Virus record (IMG/VR): IMGVR_UViG_3300043411_001904
Direction: 5' to 3' (one strand)
DNA from: an uncultured virus (IMG/VR IMGVR_UViG_3300043411_001904)
Lineage: Duplodnaviria; Heunggongvirae; Uroviricota; Caudoviricetes
Length of the DNA: 64,000 nucleotides
The notes under the pieces were generated by a model, which saw only the letters and a list, made by a program, of their open reading frames with translations, made no database searches and was not told where the DNA came from. Position numbers and translations under genes: made by a program. Positions 7,827 through 25,366 of this stretch are shown piece after piece (positions within the stretch are counted from its first letter, which is position 1; each line of letters begins with the position of its first letter).

Positions 7827-7842
7827 TTTAGTTAGGTGTTAG

Positions 7843-7915
7843 ATGAGGAAATGGGACTTGAACCCATATCTTCGGAGCCAGAATCCGAAATCATAACCAA
7901 TTAGACTATTCCTCA
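7843..7915 (-). tRNA. tRNA-Gln(CUG)
   Basis: TGAGGAA/TTCCTCA acceptor; anticodon arm TCGGA-TTCTGGC-TCCGA; T arm ATGGG-TTCAAGT-CCCAT. Confidence 0.9.
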
Positions 7916-7921
7916 ATTTTG

Positions 7922-8005
7922 CTACGGAAGTAGGACTCGAACCTACACAGGACTTTCGTCCAACTGGGGCCAAAACCCAGCGCCATGCCATTAGGCGATT
8001 CCGCA
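7922..8005 (-). tRNA. tRNA-Gln(UUG) with long variable arm
   Basis: CTGGG-TTTTGGC-CCCAG anticodon arm; variable arm GGAC-GAAA-GTCC; T arm GTAGG-TTCGAGT-CCTAC. Confidence 0.85.
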
Positions 8006-8012
8006 ATTTTAG

Positions 8013-8083
8013 ATGCCTGACCTGGATTCGAACCAGGGATAAGTGAGCCAAAATCACTTGTGTTACCACTACACTATCAGGCA
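8013..8083 (-). tRNA. tRNA-Gln(UUG)
   Basis: TGCCTGA/TCAGGCA acceptor; AGTGA-TTTTGGC-TCACT; CCTGG-TTCGAAT-CCAGG. Confidence 0.92.
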
Positions 8084-8085
8084 AT

Positions 8086-8130
8086 AAAAAAACAAAAAAC
8101 CGATCAATTTTGAGATTGATCGGTTTTTTG
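8086..8130 (-). terminator. Intrinsic terminator (attenuator) upstream of the tRNA-Gln cluster
   Basis: AAAAAACCGATCAAT-CTCAAA-ATTGATCGGTTTTTT followed by GTTTTTTT. Confidence 0.85.
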
Positions 8131-8150
8131 AGTATTTTTTGGACAATACT

Positions 8151-8210
8151 TTACCTCTCAATCTGTCGATTGCTTTGCTGAGGTTGCTGGTATGTTCCGT
8201 TGAAGTTCAT
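8151..8210 (-). CDS. Gln-rich leader peptide MNFNGTYQQPQQSNRQIER
   Basis: 19-codon ORF with 5 Gln codons (CAG x3, CAA x2); 3' end complementary to the terminator 5' arm. Confidence 0.8.
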   Translation of the reverse strand: MNFNGTYQQPQQSNRQIER

Positions 8211-10708: not shown

Positions 10709-10743
10709 AAAACAAAAATCCCGTTAATCTTTCGACTAACGGG
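10709..10743 (-). terminator. Intrinsic terminator (attenuator) upstream of the Asp/Pro tRNA cluster
   Basis: CCCGTTAGTC-GAAA-GATTAACGGG then ATTTTTGTTTT. Confidence 0.85.
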
Positions 10744-10767
10744 TTCGTGTTCTGTGTTTTATCTAAA

Positions 10768-10863
10768 TCACATGAACATATAGTTAGTCCCATTCAATCT
10801 TGGATCAAGATCGATCACAACCATCGGTTGGGGGTTAACGTTTATGTTGATGTTGAAATTCAT
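10768..10863 (-). CDS. Leader peptide MNFNININVNPQPMVVIDLDPRLNGTNYMFM
   Basis: 31-codon ORF with Pro CCC/CCG/CCA and Asp GAT x2; internal GACTAAC complementary to the terminator 5' arm. Confidence 0.7.
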   Translation of the reverse strand: MNFNININVNPQPMVVIDLDPRLNGTNYMFM

Positions 10864-13396: not shown

Positions 13397-15197
13397 TTAT
13401 ATACCAATTTTGATCATATTCCATTCCCTTGCTAATTCCCTGAAAGATTCCCCGATCGGCAAAGAGATAATGCAATATCGTATTCCCACATCAAAATATT
13501 TACCCGTATCATATTCACCAAAATAAATATCCCCTATTTTATCATGATCCACTCGAATTTGTATAGAATTGAAAGATACATCATCATATAATAATCGTAA
13601 CCAACTATCTAAATATCGACTTGGAGTAATATGTTCCAAAAAAGGAATTCCTCTTTCTCTATCAAACTTATAATAAATCATTCGACAGTCTCAACACTAA
13701 CATGCTCGTATTCATGTCCAGCAGATGATCGACCTCTGATAAATCCCCACGCCTTCCCACTAGGATTGTCCAATTCTTTTTGGACTCTTTCCCTTAGACC
13801 TTCAGGTTCACTCCAATCATAAAATCCAATTTCTAGATGAAGTTTCATAATTTTGCGAGCCGATTCTTCGAGTTCTGCAGGAGAATCCCCTTTATAGTAA
13901 TAATTCCCATGCTTTGATTTCAAAACTAAAATTTTCATATTTCAATTTTTTCAATTGTAATGTTACCTAATACAAGCTCATTATATAGTCCAATGGCTCT
14001 TATCGCGTCTTTCCTAGAAAGGAATGGTGGAGAAACCTTACGATCTTTTTCCAGCGAAGGATATTCATATTTAAGATCTAAATTAAATTTACCCAATTGG
14101 AGTGGAGCTCTAGTATCTAGATAAATATAATTTTTGTAAGTATTGACAATTTTAGTTGGTTGCTTAAAAATATTATCATTCGAAATCCTTTCAGTGGTTT
14201 CCCTTACAACAGGATAAAAAAATCCCGAATTGGGACATGTTTCAATAAAAAATTCATATTTAGTCGGTGATATATCAACAGATGACCATTTTGGCCTAAT
14301 ACCAAACCATTTATACTTAAATCGGATAACCTTTTTATTGAAAAATTCACTAATTTTTTCAAATCTCATTTTAATTTGTTTTTGGCCAATGTTTAGCTAA
14401 TGTATTGCTAAAATCATTAATATTCAAATCAAAAATTTTATCTATCAATTTATCTCTATTAATTTGTGTTGAATACACAGGAACACAAAATCCATTTTCA
14501 TAATCATAGTCAGAGTAATATCCACTATCATAATCATCATCGGGATCCCACGCATATATTCCCATTTCTCTTAATTCCTCGGATCCTATAAATTGATATC
14601 CGGACCCAATAGAATTGGGATAGGACCAACGGCGAGGACGATGAAGACTTGAAGAAATAATAACTTCAAATTCCCATAAATCAGAATCTGTAACCTTAGA
14701 TGTATGTACTCTATGAGTTGTCATAGAAATATATATCTAAAATAAAGAATCTAGTTTAGATCTCCTTTGATACTCCCTCCAAAGCTTTTTAACCTTATCG
14801 TAGTTATCACCAGACCCACTAAAATCTGTATCGAAAATAACAATATTAATTTTATCTTTCGAAAACATACTCTTGGTATTATCTTTTATTTGGAAAGGAG
14901 CAAATCCATTATTCTGTATACTGAAATGAATTGCACAAAAAATTAGATTATCATCACTCATCCCACTAATAGCAGGTAACCTAGAAGAATCATGAGAATG
15001 CCAATTTTTCGAGTTATTAGAGATCCGATAATATTCTTTGAAAAAATCCTGAATAATGGGATTCTTATATTTAATCCAATCACCATCGAGGGATATGAAG
15101 TTATGATACTTGTCGCTTTTTACAAAATCGACGACTTCAGAGAAGTCTTCTGAAGCCTCATCAAATATTGCAACTCGAATATTCATTATTTATATAG

Positions 15198-15288
15198 CAG
15201 AGGCTGAGGGATTCGAACCCCCGATTCGGAATTTCACCGAATTCATGTTTTCAAGACATGTGCAATAAACCAACTCTACCAAGCCTCT
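15198..15288 (-). tRNA. tRNA-Ser(UGA)
   Basis: CATGT-CTTGAAA-ACATG; long variable arm; G73; GGGGG-TTCGAAT-CCCTC. Confidence 0.9.
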
Positions 15289-17009: not shown

Positions 17010-17140
17010 AAAGATAGAGAACACTGAAAAGTGTGTTTTTCTGTGCTACCATTACACTACACCAACTAAGTTGGGTCAGGATTCGAACCTGAACTCGTCA
17101 TTTTCAAGATGAAGTAACACTTTTACTCACTACTATCTTT
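17010..17140 (-). ncRNA. YrlA/Y-RNA-like permuted tRNA mimic, copy 1
   Basis: Terminal stem AAAGATAG/CTATCTTT; inner stem AAAAGTGT/ACACTTTT; T arm TCAGG-TTCGAAT-CCTGA, then closed acceptor-like hairpin, then D arm TAGTGTAATGGTAGCAC. Confidence 0.75.
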
Positions 17141-19462: not shown

Positions 19463-20281
19463 TTACAAAAGATTAATATCGATACCATGTGTATCATACC
19501 ACCACTCAGGTGATTTGCCCAAGTGCTTATTTTTTAACTTATTATATCTCTCAAGTATCTTACTTTGTCTTTTTACTTCATCATGATAAAATTCGTGATC
19601 AACAATAATATCATTCTTAAAGCACTCTCGAAGCAATTTTCTTAAAATATATCCATGTTTCAAGTTACCCGGAACAAACCCGGATTGTATTATTTTCAAA
19701 ACAGAATCTCTAAGAATATCCTCTTTGGTTCTAACTATCCCATGAAACATTTCTAACCTTTCAAGACCAAATCCAACATCAATTGATTGACCTAGCGGAT
19801 TAACAATATTCCCAATTTCAATACCATTCTTATAGAACTCAGTGCAATATCCACCAATATCACCATCCGACCAAATACACTCAGGATCCAATCTAACATC
19901 ACAATTTGGATAAAGATCAATCCAATCTTTTTTATCAGGATGAATAGTAAAATAATCAGGAATAACATCAATTGATTTCAAAAAATCCAACCAAAAATCC
20001 ACAGTCCACTGAATACTTTTCTCCTTGAAAGAAAAAAGACCCATCATATTGAAGTATAAGAAATGTGTTCCATCACCAATTTGATCAAAATCATTTAATC
20101 GAAGACATGGCTGAATATTTCCAATAGTTGATTCATCCGGATTCTTGAATTTTGATTTAAACTGCTGCATCCCAGCAGGACAAAAAAGGGTCGTATCATC
20201 ATACGACCCAATAGATAGGTTTTCCTGAAATGGTATTCCATTCAAGACGCAAAATTCTTTATATTTTTGAGATATATTCAT
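19463..20281 (-). CDS. Alanyl-tRNA synthetase N-terminal catalytic domain only (272 aa)
   Basis: DDTTLFCPAGMQQFK, QPCLR, GDGTH..F.MMG.FSF, GYCTEF, EIGNIV, IDVGFGLERL, GYILRKLLR. Confidence 0.85.
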   Translation of the reverse strand: MNISQKYKEFCVLNGIPFQENLSIGSYDDTTLFCPAGMQQFKSKFKNPDESTIGNIQPCLRLNDFDQIGDGTHFLYFNMMGLFSFKEKSIQWTVDFWLDFLKSIDVIPDYFTIHPDKKDWIDLYPNCDVRLDPECIWSDGDIGGYCTEFYKNGIEIGNIVNPLGQSIDVGFGLERLEMFHGIVRTKEDILRDSVLKIIQSGFVPGNLKHGYILRKLLRECFKNDIIVDHEFYHDEVKRQSKILERYNKLKNKHLGKSPEWWYDTHGIDINLL

Positions 20282-20354
20282 GGAGCGAAAGAGGAGAATC
20301 GAACTCCCATCTAAGCCTTGGCAAGGCCTTATAATACCACTATACGACTTTCGC
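20281..20354 (-). tRNA. tRNA-Gly(GCC) with encoded CCA
   Basis: GCGAAAG/CTTTCGC-TCCA; AGGCC-TTGCCAA-GGCTT. Confidence 0.92.
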
Positions 20355-20356
20355 AA

Positions 20357-20497
20357 AAGATAGAGAAAATTGATCAGTGAGTTTTTTTCTGTGCTACCAT
20401 TACACTACATCGGCATAAAAACTTGAGCCGACGCCGGGATTCGAACCCGGTCTAGTCATTTGAAATATGAAGTAACACTAATCTTCACTACTATCTT
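20357..20497 (-). ncRNA. YrlA/Y-RNA-like permuted tRNA mimic, copy 2
   Basis: AAGATAG/CTATCTT ends; GATTAGTG/CACTGATC stem; CCGGG-TTCGAAT-CCCGG; GTCGGC/GCCGAT hairpin; same D arm as copy 1. Confidence 0.75.
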
Positions 20498-20498
20498 G

Positions 20499-20571
20499 TA
20501 GTCTCAACCGGTGACGATCCGGCTTCTTCGCCTTGAGAAAGCGATGTCCTACCAACGTAGACGATGAGACC
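20499..20571 (-). tRNA. tRNA-Glu(CUC)
   Basis: TCGCT-TTCTCAA-GGCGA; D arm GTCT/GGAC typical of Glu; T loop ATCGTCA. Confidence 0.8.
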
Positions 20572-20596: not shown

Positions 20597-20980
20597 GTGA
20601 AACACATTAAACTATTTGAAAAGTATCAAGATCATCCTATTCTAGATTTCTTTAATGACATCATAGATGATTATAAAATTGAAGTAACTGAACAGAATCC
20701 TAGAACTGAAGTCCATATACAAAATATACCAAAATACAAACCAATATTAAATGATGATTTGAAAAATATTATTTCAATTCTTAAACAATATCGGCCATCA
20801 CAAAGCAGACATGACGGATGGGGAGATCGAAAAAGACCAATTGTTGATTCCTACTTAAGAGATCTACCATTTATAAAAAGAATCGAAGATACTTCAGGAT
20901 ATTCATTGATCGACTTTTCAACAACTGGATTTTTTGATTATAGAGAAAATTATGGATTATGGTTAATATTCATTAAATAA
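20597..20980 (+). CDS. Hypothetical protein with MKHIKLFE motif
   Basis: GTG start after TAATATATA. Confidence 0.55.
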   Translation: MKHIKLFEKYQDHPILDFFNDIIDDYKIEVTEQNPRTEVHIQNIPKYKPILNDDLKNIISILKQYRPSQSRHDGWGDRKRPIVDSYLRDLPFIKRIEDTSGYSLIDFSTTGFFDYRENYGLWLIFIK

Positions 20981-21326: not shown

Positions 21327-21993
21327 TTGTTATATATAAGCTCAGCGAAGTAAAAAATTTACTTTTTAAGTAATTTTTCTAATTGGTCTATCCACTCTAG
21401 ACTAGCTTCTCGATTAAGATATACTTCCATTTTATCCTCATCTTTAACTTCAAAATCATACAGTTCCTTAACCACAACATACCAACCATCAGTAAAATTT
21501 TCACTTATATCCAACTCGATATCATCATTTATCCTTTTAGTGAAGGTAGGATTAAGAATACATTTTTTTTCTCCACCATCTAGAGTATATTCTGTCCAAT
21601 TAATTCTATTCTCATTAACTGACCAACCCCTATCGATCATATTATCAAATTTAGTTCGATCAATTTCATACCCAACTTGAATATGTTTATCCAATTTCTG
21701 AAACTCTTGATCCTTGCGTGTTTGTAAGTCTGTTGTGTTATTCATAATATAAATATATTAAAATTTTTTATAATCCAAATTGGTCTAGTGTGGATCATTC
21801 GACAATATCTGATCTATTTTTAAACATCTTTTAGCACCGATCAATTGTTCTTCATAATAATTAAAAGATATTGAACTATTTTGATCACAGACATGACATA
21901 CAAATTTCATGTAAATGAAATGACAATTCCAATCATAGATCCTAATATATTTATGATAACATTTATCACAGATCATACTGTTATATATAGATG

Positions 21994-22069
21994 TGGACAC
22001 AGGGGGAATCGAACCCACTATTTTAGACAATCATTGCAAGTGATTGTGCCTGCCTTCGGCTTCTGGCCC
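21994..22069 (-). tRNA. tRNA-Ala(UGC), irregular acceptor stem
   Basis: AATCA-CTTGCAA-TGATT; G3:U70 and A73 retained; TTCGATT T loop. Confidence 0.7.
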
Positions 22070-23105: not shown

Positions 23106-23114
23106 TCAAAATTG

Positions 23115-23188
23115 TAGCCCTGAGCGGTGACGATCCGCCTTTTTTGCCTTGAAAGGGCAACGTCCTAACCAGCGTAGACGACAGGGCC
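23115..23188 (-). tRNA. tRNA-Glu(UUC)
   Basis: TTGCC-CTTTCAA-GGCAA; GGCCCTG/CAGGGCT. Confidence 0.85.
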
Positions 23189-23207
23189 ATAATAATACTA
23201 ATAATTG

Positions 23208-23279
23208 TGCAGTAGACCGGATTCGAACCGACACCCTGAGCTTGGAAGGCTCTCATGCTACCATTAACACCACTTCTGC
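23208..23279 (-). tRNA. tRNA-Gly(UCC)
   Basis: GAGC-CTTCCAA-GCTC; GTCGG-TTCGAAT-CCGGT. Confidence 0.85.
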
Positions 23280-23407: not shown

Positions 23408-23410
23408 TTG

Positions 23411-23490
23411 TTGGCGAGGTGGGATTTGAACCCACGTTTTCAACAACCACTACAGTTCTAGTGTTTATAAGACACCGCTGGTACACGCCA
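23411..23490 (-). tRNA. tRNA-Ile(UAU)-like lacking a canonical D arm
   Basis: TGGCGTG/CTCGCCA; GGTGT-CTTATAA-ACACT; GTGGG-TTCAAAT-CCCAC; 7 nt between acceptor and anticodon stems; 24-nt variable region. Confidence 0.7.
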
Positions 23491-23495
23491 ATATG

Positions 23496-23590
23496 TTGGG
23501 GGAGTGAGACTCGAACTCACCTACTGGAAAGGCCAATACATCAATTTGATAACCCAGGACAGTTTTACAGACTGTTGATGTTATCCCCCA
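23496..23590 (-). tRNA. tRNA-Tyr(GUA)-like lacking a canonical D arm
   Basis: TGGGGGA/TCCCCCA, A73; ACAGT-CTGTAAA-ACTGT; GTGAG-TTCGAGT-CTCAC; very long variable region. Confidence 0.7.
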
Positions 23591-23640
23591 TTTTTATCTC
23601 AATATTTCAAAGAAATCTTTCTCACTTTCTCACTTTCTTA

Positions 23641-23683
23641 AAACGAAAAAACCCTGTCTGATTTTTCCAATCGGACAGGGTTT
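23641..23683 (-). terminator. Intrinsic terminator (attenuator) upstream of the Tyr/Ile/Gly/Glu/Ala tRNA cluster
   Basis: AAACCCTGTCCGATT-GGAAA-AATCAGACAGGGTTT then TTTCGTTT. Confidence 0.85.
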
Positions 23684-23701
23684 CTGTGTTTTCAATTCGT
23701 G

Positions 23702-23794
23702 TTAACACATACTTCGTCCGATCGATGAGGCTCCCTCATACGCATAGCCTGCTTCTGCTATTCCGACGATTGATATGTAGTTAACGTTTTTCAT
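23702..23794 (-). CDS. Leader peptide MKNVNYISIVGIAEAGYAYEGASSIGRSMC
   Basis: 30-codon ORF; 17 of residues 6-26 are Y/I/G/A/E; ATCGGAC complementary to the terminator 5' arm. Confidence 0.8.
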   Translation of the reverse strand: MKNVNYISIVGIAEAGYAYEGASSIGRSMC

Positions 23795-23798
23795 ATTA

Positions 23799-23830
23799 CA
23801 AATGTATATATAATTTTCTATTATACCAAA
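23799..23830 (-). promoter_or_regulatory. Bacteroidota sigma70-type promoter for leader 3
   Basis: TTTG-N20-TACATTTG, 4 nt before the ATG. Confidence 0.7.
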
Positions 23831-23848
23831 TTTATTTTTATTCTTTTG

Positions 23849-23929
23849 TAGCGGGGGGAGGATTTGAACCTCCGTCTTTCATTTCTCGAGTTTATGAGAC
23901 TCGCGACCTTACCACTAGTCCACCCCGCA
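23849..23929 (-). tRNA. tRNA-Met(CAU), possibly initiator
   Basis: CGAGT-CTCATAA-ACTCG; 1:72 mismatch (U/U); GGAGG-TTCAAAT-CCTCC. Confidence 0.8.
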
Positions 23930-24907: not shown

Positions 24908-25366
24908 TCATTTATAGATGATTCTTCTATAGCTATCAACTAATGCCTTTTGCTTTTCAACACAAGAATCAATTTTTTTAGATTTCTCAATTATAACATC
25001 CTCACCAACCTTTCGATCCCTCTCAGAGTTTCTCTTCAAACAAACATCAAGAGGTGTATCCATATGAATAACTTCAACCCAGTATCCTTTGGATTTAAGC
25101 ATATTAATTATTCTAATTGAGTAATTGTTATTTACTCCACCCGAATCCATACAAATATCAATTCCAGAATCTGAAATCCTATTCATCTCTAGTTCTGCTT
25201 CTTCCACACTCCAATCATGGACTATATGTGGACACTTCGGATTCCAGTTTGGATGAGTTGTTTTTATGTGGTCAGCATCAACAATATGATATCCCCGAAT
25301 ATGGTTCGAGATAAATGTACTCTTACCTGATCCTGGCAAACCAATAAACAATCTTGCTTTTTTCAA
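24908..25366 (-). CDS. AAA_33/polynucleotide-kinase-like P-loop protein
   Basis: GLPGSGKST; TPLDVCLKRN..R.R. Confidence 0.8.
   Translation of the reverse strand: MKKARLFIGLPGSGKSTFISNHIRGYHIVDADHIKTTHPNWNPKCPHIVHDWSVEEAELEMNRISDSGIDICMDSGGVNNNYSIRIINMLKSKGYWVEVIHMDTPLDVCLKRNSERDRKVGEDVIIEKSKKIDSCVEKQKALVDSYRRIIYK

Follow-up and report, generated by a model that had tools for sequence, protein, structure and literature searches.

Does a short open reading frame (ORF) that stands before a block of phage transfer RNA (tRNA) genes list the amino acids of those tRNAs, and does it control whether the block is transcribed? This question is raised by positions 23,641 to 23,830 of a 64,000-nucleotide (nt) stretch of DNA, hereafter the window, from an uncultured virus of the Caudoviricetes (IMG/VR record IMGVR_UViG_3300043411_001904), where a promoter-like region, a leader ORF of 30 codons and an intrinsic terminator precede tRNA genes on the minus strand. 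A preliminary description, made from the sequence alone, had proposed a multi-amino-acid attenuator whose leader reads like an index of the downstream tRNAs. The parts of such a device are present and conserved, the composition of the leader tracks the downstream tRNA set, and the end of the ORF is complementary to the terminator and changes with it. The element is probably a transcription attenuator of the ribosome-mediated (leader-peptide) kind, with a block of phage tRNA genes under its control, a reading that is supported because there is a family of related loci, because leader compositions track their arrays, because leader and array are merged together in the window, because terminators abut tRNA genes, and because antiterminator segments covary with the terminators.

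The residues from 6 to 26 of the leader include 17 Tyr, Ile, Gly, Ala or Glu among 21 (Tyr 3, Ile 4, Gly 4, Ala 4, Glu 2), as had been stated and as the ORF translation bears out. Against an amino-acid background of the 48 window ORFs of at least 150 aa, the probability of at least 17 of 21 is 1.5e-6 for this stretch, which the preliminary description had chosen. The whole tail (residues 9-30) has 15 of 22 such residues (P = 1.9e-4), and 11 of 22 if the count is restricted to amino acids carried by the four adjacent tRNAs (P = 0.016). The suggested test of leader composition thus gave an enrichment of amino acids, whereas the codons of the window leader are at the level of chance. The tRNA genes that had been named downstream are all present, five being called by ARAGORN, tRNA-Ile by Rfam, tRNA-Ala by ARAGORN at a relaxed threshold and tRNA-Tyr by manual reading.

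The element has weak nhmmer matches (E 0.013 and 0.63, in a search of loci that had been fetched for other reasons) in the nearest GenBank relatives of the window, LR745206 (634,780 bases) and LR756502 (642,428 bases). These are unannotated genomes of uncultured phages, about 71-83% identical to the window over parts of the tRNA region. In both, a 27-codon ORF with the same first eight codons is followed by a terminator and, 6-12 nt later, by tRNA-Ile(UAU). A degenerate start pattern recovered 2 viral and 51 metagenome loci. After eight chance metagenome matches (long ORFs, or 9-codon ORFs without a terminator) and two loci cut by contig ends had been dropped, the final set comprised 46 loci with 38 distinct sequences, including the window and the loci labelled L001, L002, L042 and L043. 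The plan of this set is short ORF, terminator and tRNA, with ORF and U-run kept in all 46 loci. Leaders that were found without the start pattern begin differently, yet their starts too are rich in Asn, Thr and Lys, with A-rich codons. Among the 38 distinct sequences, the fold with a long ORF hairpin and a terminator occurs in 37 (the exception, L082, is rearranged), a same-strand tRNA lies downstream in 31, and the first ARAGORN tRNA starts within 30 nt of the U-run in 22 and 4-12 nt after it in 20. Since a Bacteroidota promoter needs about 40 nt, the tRNAs at 4-12 nt would be transcribed only through the terminator. The leader ATG of L079 lies 14 nt behind a preceding tRNA-Met, so the leader there would belong to a longer transcript.

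Other searches did not enlarge the viral part of this family. A blastn search of the element against GenBank phages gave nothing usable (best E 0.07), and an exact 23-nt piece of the leader had no match in viral contigs. Synteny through the upstream 127-aa ORF led to five viral loci, none with tRNAs, and the exact 3' part of the upstream tRNA-Met led to 34 viral loci in which neither blastn nor nhmmer found a relative of the leader. A looser start pattern returned 14 loci from viral contigs, of which only the two already known belong to the family.

Leader tails differ between members of the family, and they do so together with the tRNA sets, which were compiled by running ARAGORN on oriented loci and by our own reading of odd tRNAs that had been missed or mislabelled. 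Tails rich in Ile, Gly and Ala precede tRNA-Ile(UAU), Gly(UCC), Met, Ala(UGC) and Gly(GCC), and the Tyr and Glu tRNAs of these loci lie upstream of the leader. The tails of the window and L079, whose leaders are alike in 24 of 30 residues, add Tyr and Glu, and Tyr and Glu tRNAs are found downstream there (Tyr, Ile, Gly, Glu in the window; Tyr, Glu, Ile, Tyr, Gly, Glu in L079). The tail of L058 contains Tyr and Glu and its array is Tyr, Glu, Tyr, Glu. A Leu/Val/Phe/Ser tail precedes a Leu(UAA)-like tRNA and two or three Phe tRNAs, a Ser/Leu/His/Arg tail precedes Ser, Ser, His, His, Arg and Leu tRNAs, and a 56-codon leader with four Pro precedes two tRNA-Pro. We scored the share of tail residues (after residue 8) that have a downstream tRNA, with one leader per type. 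The true pairing of the seven leader types was the best, being reached by 2 of 5040 permutations (two types share the Leu/Phe set), and with one of the two sharing types left out it was reached by 1 of 720.

The window itself offers what may be regarded as a natural experiment. In both LR745206 and LR756502, the Tyr/Glu arrays are preceded by a Tyr/Glu-rich leader of their own and its terminator, and the Ile/Gly arrays then come behind an Ile/Gly leader; the Tyr/Glu-rich leader in L001 has four Tyr and three Glu among 28 residues. The window has one array with both tRNA groups and one leader with both compositions. Compared with the Ile/Gly/Ala type, the leaders of the window and L079 carry extra middle codons for Glu, Ala, Gly, Tyr, Ala, Tyr and Glu (alignment A1). 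A merged leader thus stands before a merged array.

The association was also examined prospectively in four previously unseen tRNA blocks of LR745206, a record with 61 tRNA matches. An automatic rule called for a hairpin with a T-run, an ATG-started ORF of 12-60 codons ending at most 75 nt before it, and tRNAs behind it. This rule listed eight hairpins, in five cases with a mini-ORF of 16-38 codons ahead of the hairpin and with a tRNA beginning 3-19 nt behind the T-run. The other three were not counted: two lie inside tRNA-like sequence without an ORF, and one follows a 59-codon ORF and is 309 nt from the next tRNA. The five arrays carry His/Phe/Trp/Lys, Arg/Ser, Asn/Arg/Leu/Val/Ile/Thr/Met, Pro/Asp and Gln. 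Their true pairing with the leaders was the best of 120 permutations by both scores, and binomial tests against the window amino-acid frequencies gave, in array order, 0.055, 5e-5, 3.6e-6, 0.095 and 3.3e-8.

An open frame, a third-position bias and insertions or deletions of whole codons favour translation of the leader. Across 1038 codons, frames 1 and 2 of the 38 distinct sequences contain 130 and 61 stops, whereas frame 0 is open in every one of them. Comparison of the window leader with that of L079 shows 17 differences in 93 positions, of which 4 fall on the first, 3 on the second and 10 on the third codon position, giving 8 synonymous and 6 non-synonymous codon changes, although RNA structure constrains the same sequence too and this coding signal has to be read with that in mind. 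Length differences between leader types amount to whole codons (alignment A1).

The window, with a G+C content of about 31%, comes from a huge phage with Bacteroidota-type promoters. Promoter-like boxes of this type (TTTG, about 20 nt, TAnnTTTG) precede several of its units, and an AT-rich motif that overlaps the promoter-like region of the leader is common to other leaders and to the region upstream of the tRNA-Met gene. According to PMC9723704, the sigma-A box of Bacteroidota is TAnnTTTG at -12 to -5 and Shine-Dalgarno sequences are unused in the phylum. The -7 type box does sit 4 nt 5' of the leader ATG (23794), as had been noted earlier. With the box at -12 to -5, the predicted +1 would be the A of this ATG, and a near-leaderless mRNA would follow from the geometry.

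The minimum-energy fold of 23800-23641 has -53.3 kcal/mol (z -6.2; 0 of 200 shuffles were as stable). In it, codons 4-11 pair with the final codons and the stop to form a long imperfect hairpin, which encloses two small ones, and the terminator begins after a 16-nt spacer. The ATGAGG/CCTCAT hairpin of the preliminary description belongs to this fold, and the 7-mer at 23716-23722 and its complement in the terminator arm at 23670-23676 were both located where it had placed them. The best duplex between the ORF end and the terminator 5' arm has 9 pairs and -12.7 kcal/mol and includes this 7-mer. Other leader types have segments of 6-9 pairs near the ORF end or just past the stop, and these vary as the terminators vary. 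One antiterminator pair that is C-G in the window is U-A in L079, with both partners altered, and the fourth pair of the terminator stem is U-A in the window, C-G in L079 and A-U in the Ile/Gly/Ala type. The register of the antiterminator differs between the window type and the Ile/Gly/Ala type, the terminator of the latter being nearly invariant. A swap control, in which the terminator arm was fixed and offered the ORF ends of other representatives (14 representatives, 11 terminator classes), ranked the cognate duplex first for 7 of the 14 representatives and among the top two for 9, and first for 5 of the 11 terminator classes; this control is blurred by G+C-rich stretches of the Ile/Gly/Ala leaders, which pair well with any C-rich arm.

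An Rfam search of 23641-23830 gave no family match at E up to 1, including T-box and the amino-acid operon leaders (Leu, Thr, Trp, His), and none of these leader models reached its gathering threshold anywhere in the window. Sub-threshold matches on the relative L042 were rejected, namely Leu_leader (35.5 bits against a threshold of 50, in the terminator part only) and MicC and similar families, which cover only the terminator.

How the ribosome might act on these structures was modelled with the RNA cut before the terminator 3' arm and with pairing forbidden up to 10 nt past the A-site codon. The 5' arm is then paired with a probability of 0.6-0.9 if the ribosome is anywhere up to about codon 20 of the window leader, and its pairing drops when the ribosome is at the last codons. 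This behaviour was seen in 15 of 16 leaders; L058 departs from it because its partner segment lies beyond the stop. Unlike in trp, an untranslated leader may not terminate fully in this model, and the long hairpin would not clearly enforce termination. The model fits a design in which a ribosome that reaches the leader end before the 3' arm is made causes termination, and in which delay prevents it.

The proposed mechanism would run as follows. Transcription would start at or beside the ATG (23794), and the polymerase would then meet the intrinsic terminator (23683-23646) ahead of the tRNA genes. A fast ribosome would reach the stop and cover the last codons (23724-23701), including the antiterminator segment, so that the terminator would form and the tRNA genes would stay silent. 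A ribosome delayed at the mid-leader codons for Ile, Gly, Ala, Glu and Tyr would leave this segment free to pair with the terminator 5' arm, and read-through would extend into tRNA-Tyr, Ile, Gly and Glu, and perhaps reach Ala beyond an inserted endonuclease gene. The peptide would thus be a decoding test strip for the amino acids of the tRNAs that follow, with a feedback in which slow decoding yields more tRNA. Translation of the leader, stalling and the switch would all be needed for this, and the shortage sensed might be one of tRNA amount, of charging or of intact host tRNA after damage.

The match between leader and array is one of amino acids, and at the level of codons it is weak. The codon counts given earlier are right, but the isoacceptor match that had been drawn from them is no better than codon usage, as 5 of 8 informative codons of the window leader are readable by the array anticodons against 4.3 expected (simple wobble rules, scored against codon usage). 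ATA and GGA are the common codons of the phage, at 44% of Ile codons and 53% of Gly codons. With a codon match so near to expectation, it cannot be claimed that the leader tests the phage's own isoacceptors. The likeliest signal would be tRNA supply, because extra tRNA helps if the amount of tRNA limits decoding and does not help if an amino acid is short. The amount of tRNA could become limiting after loss of host tRNAs or through a mismatch between an AT-rich phage and the host tRNA pool.

The safe core of the unit is formed by the four adjacent tRNAs Tyr, Ile, Gly and Glu (Table 1). The gap between the U-run and tRNA-Tyr is 55 nt, and no -7 type box was seen in it. A short tandem direct repeat (23600-23645, minus strand), with two or three copies of an 8-nt A/G-rich unit, fills this gap. 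Downstream of tRNA-Glu(UUC), a DUF559 endonuclease ORF separates it from the Ala(UGC)-like tRNA. In relatives, Ala(UGC) directly follows Ile and Gly, and in the leader tail 4 residues of 22 are Ala, compared with 2.8% in the proteome. For these two reasons the Ala(UGC)-like tRNA probably once belonged to the array, as its former end, and was later split off by insertion of an apparently mobile endonuclease gene. The more distal tRNAs, which the preliminary description had counted in, are a different matter: Glu(CUC), Gly(GCC), Ser(UGA) and the far Gly(UCC) probably belong to other units, as there are promoter-like boxes and other leaders in the window. The plus-strand ORF that had been named as an interruption (20597-20980) is present, tRNA-Glu(CUC) has an AT-rich promoter-like stretch directly upstream, and the tRNAs beyond this ORF probably have their own promoter. 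The tRNA-Ser gene has a -7 type box 15 nt upstream and no leader, and a tRNA-Met gene (23848-23929) likewise has a promoter-like box and no leader. Therefore, not every tRNA of the window is gated.

Table 1. Positions of the features of the leader unit, of its tRNA array and of other units in the 64,000-nt window.
Feature	Position	Strand	Basis or remark
Promoter-like region	23799..23830	-	TTTG 23830-23827, 20-nt spacer, TAnnTTTG-type -7 box 23806-23799; read from the sequence
Leader ORF, 30 codons and stop	23702..23794	-	ORF list
Region 1, 5' strand of the ORF-enclosing long hairpin	23765..23785	-	Minimum-energy fold; plan kept in family folds
Region 2, 3' strand of the long hairpin with stop codon and antiterminator segment 23714-23724	23701..23724	-	Fold and duplex calculation
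Intrinsic terminator	23646..23683	-	Stem-loop 23683-23649 (15 pairs), U-run to 23646; terminator scan and fold
tRNA-Tyr(GUA)-like, reduced D arm and long variable region	23496..23590	-	Manual reading: acceptor, anticodon and T arms
tRNA-Ile(UAU)-like, reduced D arm and long variable region	23410..23490	-	Rfam tRNA 33.2 bits; ARAGORN only at relaxed threshold
tRNA-Gly(UCC)	23207..23279	-	ARAGORN, Rfam
tRNA-Glu(UUC)	23114..23188	-	ARAGORN, Rfam
DUF559 endonuclease ORF, 339 codons	22086-23105	-	DUF559 E 6e-11; weak helix-turn-helix match
tRNA-Ala(UGC)-like	21993..22068	-	ARAGORN at relaxed threshold only
tRNA-Glu(CUC)	20498-20571		ARAGORN
tRNA-Gly(GCC)	20281-20354		ARAGORN
tRNA-Ser(UGA)	15197-15288		ARAGORN
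Third unit: 31-codon leader (middle: Pro 3, Asp 2, Gly 1) and terminator	10714..10863	-	
Second unit: 19-codon leader with 5 Gln and terminator	8094..8210	-	Followed by three tRNA-Gln (7842-8083)

The first two tRNAs of the array are of an unusual form. The Tyr(GUA)-like gene is called by neither ARAGORN nor Rfam and shares 81-84% identity with DNA of crAss001-like Bacteroides phages that carries no annotation, and the Ile(UAU)-like gene has a near-identical copy in L079. Tyr- and Ile-like genes poor in the D arm also occur in L079, L058, L060 and other loci, where ARAGORN misses them or labels them as Ser with an intron. Their conservation in many phage contigs makes it probable that they are functional.

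Two further units in the window follow the same plan. The Gln-rich leader of the second unit stands before its tRNA-Gln genes (probability of at least 5 Gln among 18 residues, 6.6e-5), and the array of the third unit consists of Asp-like, Asp(GUC), Gly(CCC) and Pro(UGG) tRNAs. The design also extends beyond tRNA genes. In L056 and L104, a Gly-rich tail stands before a fragment of a class II aminoacyl-tRNA synthetase (PF00587, E 1e-8), the best NCBIfam match of which is glycine-tRNA ligase, a weak match (E 7e-9) far below the cut-off. In the metagenome loci L072 and L100, which were recovered with the start pattern derived from phage leaders, an Ile/Val-rich tail is followed by a terminator, a second Ile-rich mini-ORF and a class IV aminotransferase (ilvE-like; PF01063, E 3e-14). 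With this tandem of leader and mini-ORF, bacterial ilvE-like genes may follow two attenuators. Relatives of the ilvE-like protein in a genome collection gave 317 loci, of which 80 were kept, almost all with Bacteroidota in their titles. When these 80 were scored for mini-ORFs, 64 had one upstream in which Ile, Val or Leu make up half or more of the tail.

Public sequencing runs contain this stretch as well. It is whole in one freshwater run, perhaps the one from which it derives, present in part in sludge and wastewater DNA runs, and present as a small part in two metatranscriptome runs. Two metatranscriptome and two DNA runs were compared as contigs. One 301-nt contig from an RNA library, which stems from a relative and differs in 30 letters and 13 gaps, corresponds to 23421-23716 and so covers the leader end, the terminator, tRNA-Tyr and tRNA-Ile. 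It may be at most a weak hint of terminator read-through.

Several points weigh against the attenuator reading. The 55-nt gap before the first tRNA of the window leaves room for a promoter. The tRNA sets were partly self-curated, in the case of the odd tRNAs, and were fixed after the data had been seen, and the metagenome set was gathered by the pattern of the first eight codons, which makes the shared start partly a matter of construction. Two of the five prospective binomials are not significant (0.055, 0.095). Some residues that are abundant in tails have no tRNA in view, such as Val in the Leu/Phe type, Asn in several types and Ser in the window. With ten leaders pooled, 28 of 43 informative codons are readable by the array anticodons compared with 22.3 expected (P ~0.046). 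In the swap control, the own duplex ranked 4th of 14 for the window, 10th for L079 and 14th, the last, for L100, and in the model without a ribosome the 5' arm is still paired at 0.26-1.0 (0.67 in the window). The RNA-library contig may be DNA carry-over, and contigs reveal neither strand nor ends.

Some of these points are what one would expect if the element were a generic translation-coupled gate, an attenuator that reports ribosome supply or the coupling of transcription and translation and in which the tail composition is secondary. The weak match of codons speaks for such a gate, as do the dependence of the modelled switch on ribosome position rather than on codon identity and the Asn-, Thr- and Lys-rich leader starts, whose A-rich codons are shared regardless of the array. 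Nevertheless, we consider it unlikely, as tail composition tracks the array in two independent permutation tests and as the tail changes when tRNAs move across the leader, which a generic gate would not need.

The remaining two explanations drop the attenuator altogether, and each appears quite improbable to us. An independent small gene would encode a functional peptide from its own promoter to its own terminator, the tRNAs being served by leaky read-through or by other promoters and the likeness of composition being due to chance. The conserved ORF with its third-position bias would suit such a gene, and so would the hydrophobic tails of some members (L106, Leu/Phe type). However, position, length and RNA plan are constant across types whose tails are entirely different, tail composition is associated with tRNA identity, the terminators stand 4-12 nt from a tRNA in 20 of 38 sequences, and the same design is found before ilvE-like genes. 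Alternatively, hairpin and terminator could form a structured non-coding RNA, either a small RNA or a module for the processing or folding of tRNA precursors, in which the frame is incidental. Small stable RNAs do occur in phage tRNA clusters (T4), the fold is very stable, and the hairpin plan is preserved across types. Against this stand the frame that is open throughout the family where the other two are full of stops, the whole-codon insertions and deletions between types, the tracking of tRNA identity only when the sequence is read as codons, and the lack of any Rfam family on the element at the threshold given above.

If the attenuator reading is true, the phage would have a direct measure of decoding and would respond by making the tRNAs that match. 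The reason why phages carry tRNA genes, and the occasions on which they use them, are debated, with matching of codon usage, replacement of degraded host tRNAs and escape from anticodon nucleases as the candidates. This debate would become testable, as the sensor codons would reveal the purpose of each tRNA block. The range of leader-peptide attenuation, the textbook mechanism of amino-acid operons, would come to include RNA genes of the translation apparatus, and organisms without initiation led by Shine-Dalgarno sequences would gain a sensor part that is compact and reprogrammable. The natural series from separate leaders and arrays to a merged leader and array is a ready-made set of constructs. 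A broader idea, to which we hold only tentatively, is that of a modular and self-indexing tRNA supply. Each tRNA block of huge Bacteroidota phages might have its own test strip, rewritten when tRNAs move, so that decoding would be measured for each class of codons, including after depletion of host tRNAs or their cleavage by defence nucleases, and only the blocks needed would be transcribed; the same design might also gate phage aminoacyl-tRNA synthetase genes.

The surroundings of the unit show some other features. The minus strand of the window is rich in tRNA genes (12 by ARAGORN; 11 by Rfam at the gathering score), and small ORFs without known families are also present. Upstream of the tRNA region, a 152-residue ORF (24908-25366, minus strand) has matches to AAA_33 and zeta-toxin-like kinase domains (E 5e-11, 8e-8). 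The alanyl-tRNA synthetase (AlaRS) fragment of the preliminary description is real (PF01411, E 5e-18): 270 residues encoded at 19463-20275 on the minus strand, of which the N-terminal catalytic part only is represented (profile positions 26-127 of 552). A terminator-like hairpin lies inside its coding sequence (20209-20188). At 17020-17134 and 20400-20500 (both minus strand) are tRNA-like pieces in permuted order, with the T arm and 3' acceptor strand followed by the 5' acceptor strand and D arm. A sub-threshold Rfam match to Y RNA-like (YrlA) sequences covers 17020-17108 (29 bits, E 0.0067), and both pieces are possibly Y RNA-like or permuted tRNA genes. In the relatives L042, L090 and L099, a tRNA-like gene lies about 60-200 nt past the terminator (Rfam tRNA 45 bits over 267-402 of L042). 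It is about 136 nt long, and its 5' part and T arm are canonical, but its anticodon region is longer by some 60 bases. The tRNA(UAA)-like genes next to it are flanked by a long extra stem. The additional sequence may be an intron or another insertion.

Leader-peptide attenuation, including that by several amino acids, is textbook knowledge, and its application to tRNA genes is apparently undescribed. A full-text literature search, with most subscription journals and old scans outside its scope, found no description of leader-peptide control of tRNA genes, and passages of PMC3082878 and PMC9723704 gave none. An attenuator-like leader before the tRNA-Phe gene pheV of E. coli, which would have been a precedent, is not borne out by the sequence: K-12 has a promoter directly before pheV, with neither a Phe-rich mini-ORF nor a terminator upstream.

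Among known systems, T-box riboswitches also gate genes of the translation apparatus by a choice between terminator and antiterminator that depends on tRNA status. Unlike the window unit, they bind uncharged tRNA directly and need no translation, and no T-box match was obtained here with Rfam. Enterobacterial leader-peptide attenuators sense several amino acids in ilvGMEDA (Leu, Val, Ile) and thr (Thr, Ile) and a single one in trp, his, leu and pheA. The window unit resembles these attenuators in its short leader with regulatory codons, its intrinsic terminator and its competing antiterminator, and it resembles the first two in that its leader would sense more than one amino acid. It differs from them in that tRNA genes and not biosynthetic enzymes are gated, a leader can list as many as seven amino acids, the loop of a long hairpin holds the sensor codons, the model does not show the untranslated leader terminating, there is no Shine-Dalgarno sequence and the start is probably leaderless. 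The pheST attenuator of E. coli is a leader peptide before phenylalanyl-tRNA synthetase. It is thus a case of leader-peptide attenuation in the translation apparatus, and a family relative of the window unit precedes a phage class II synthetase; pheST, however, controls an enzyme, through one amino acid and on a bacterial chromosome. Clues to leader peptides before amino-acid genes have been reported for Flavobacterium psychrophilum (PMC9723704). The Bacteroidota ilvE-like leaders share with the window unit the style of the start, the plan of ORF and terminator, the promoter type of the phylum and the lack of a Shine-Dalgarno sequence, whereas they are bacterial, have tails of Ile and Val only and target an aminotransferase. 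The phage units would seem to use the attenuator design of their host phylum.

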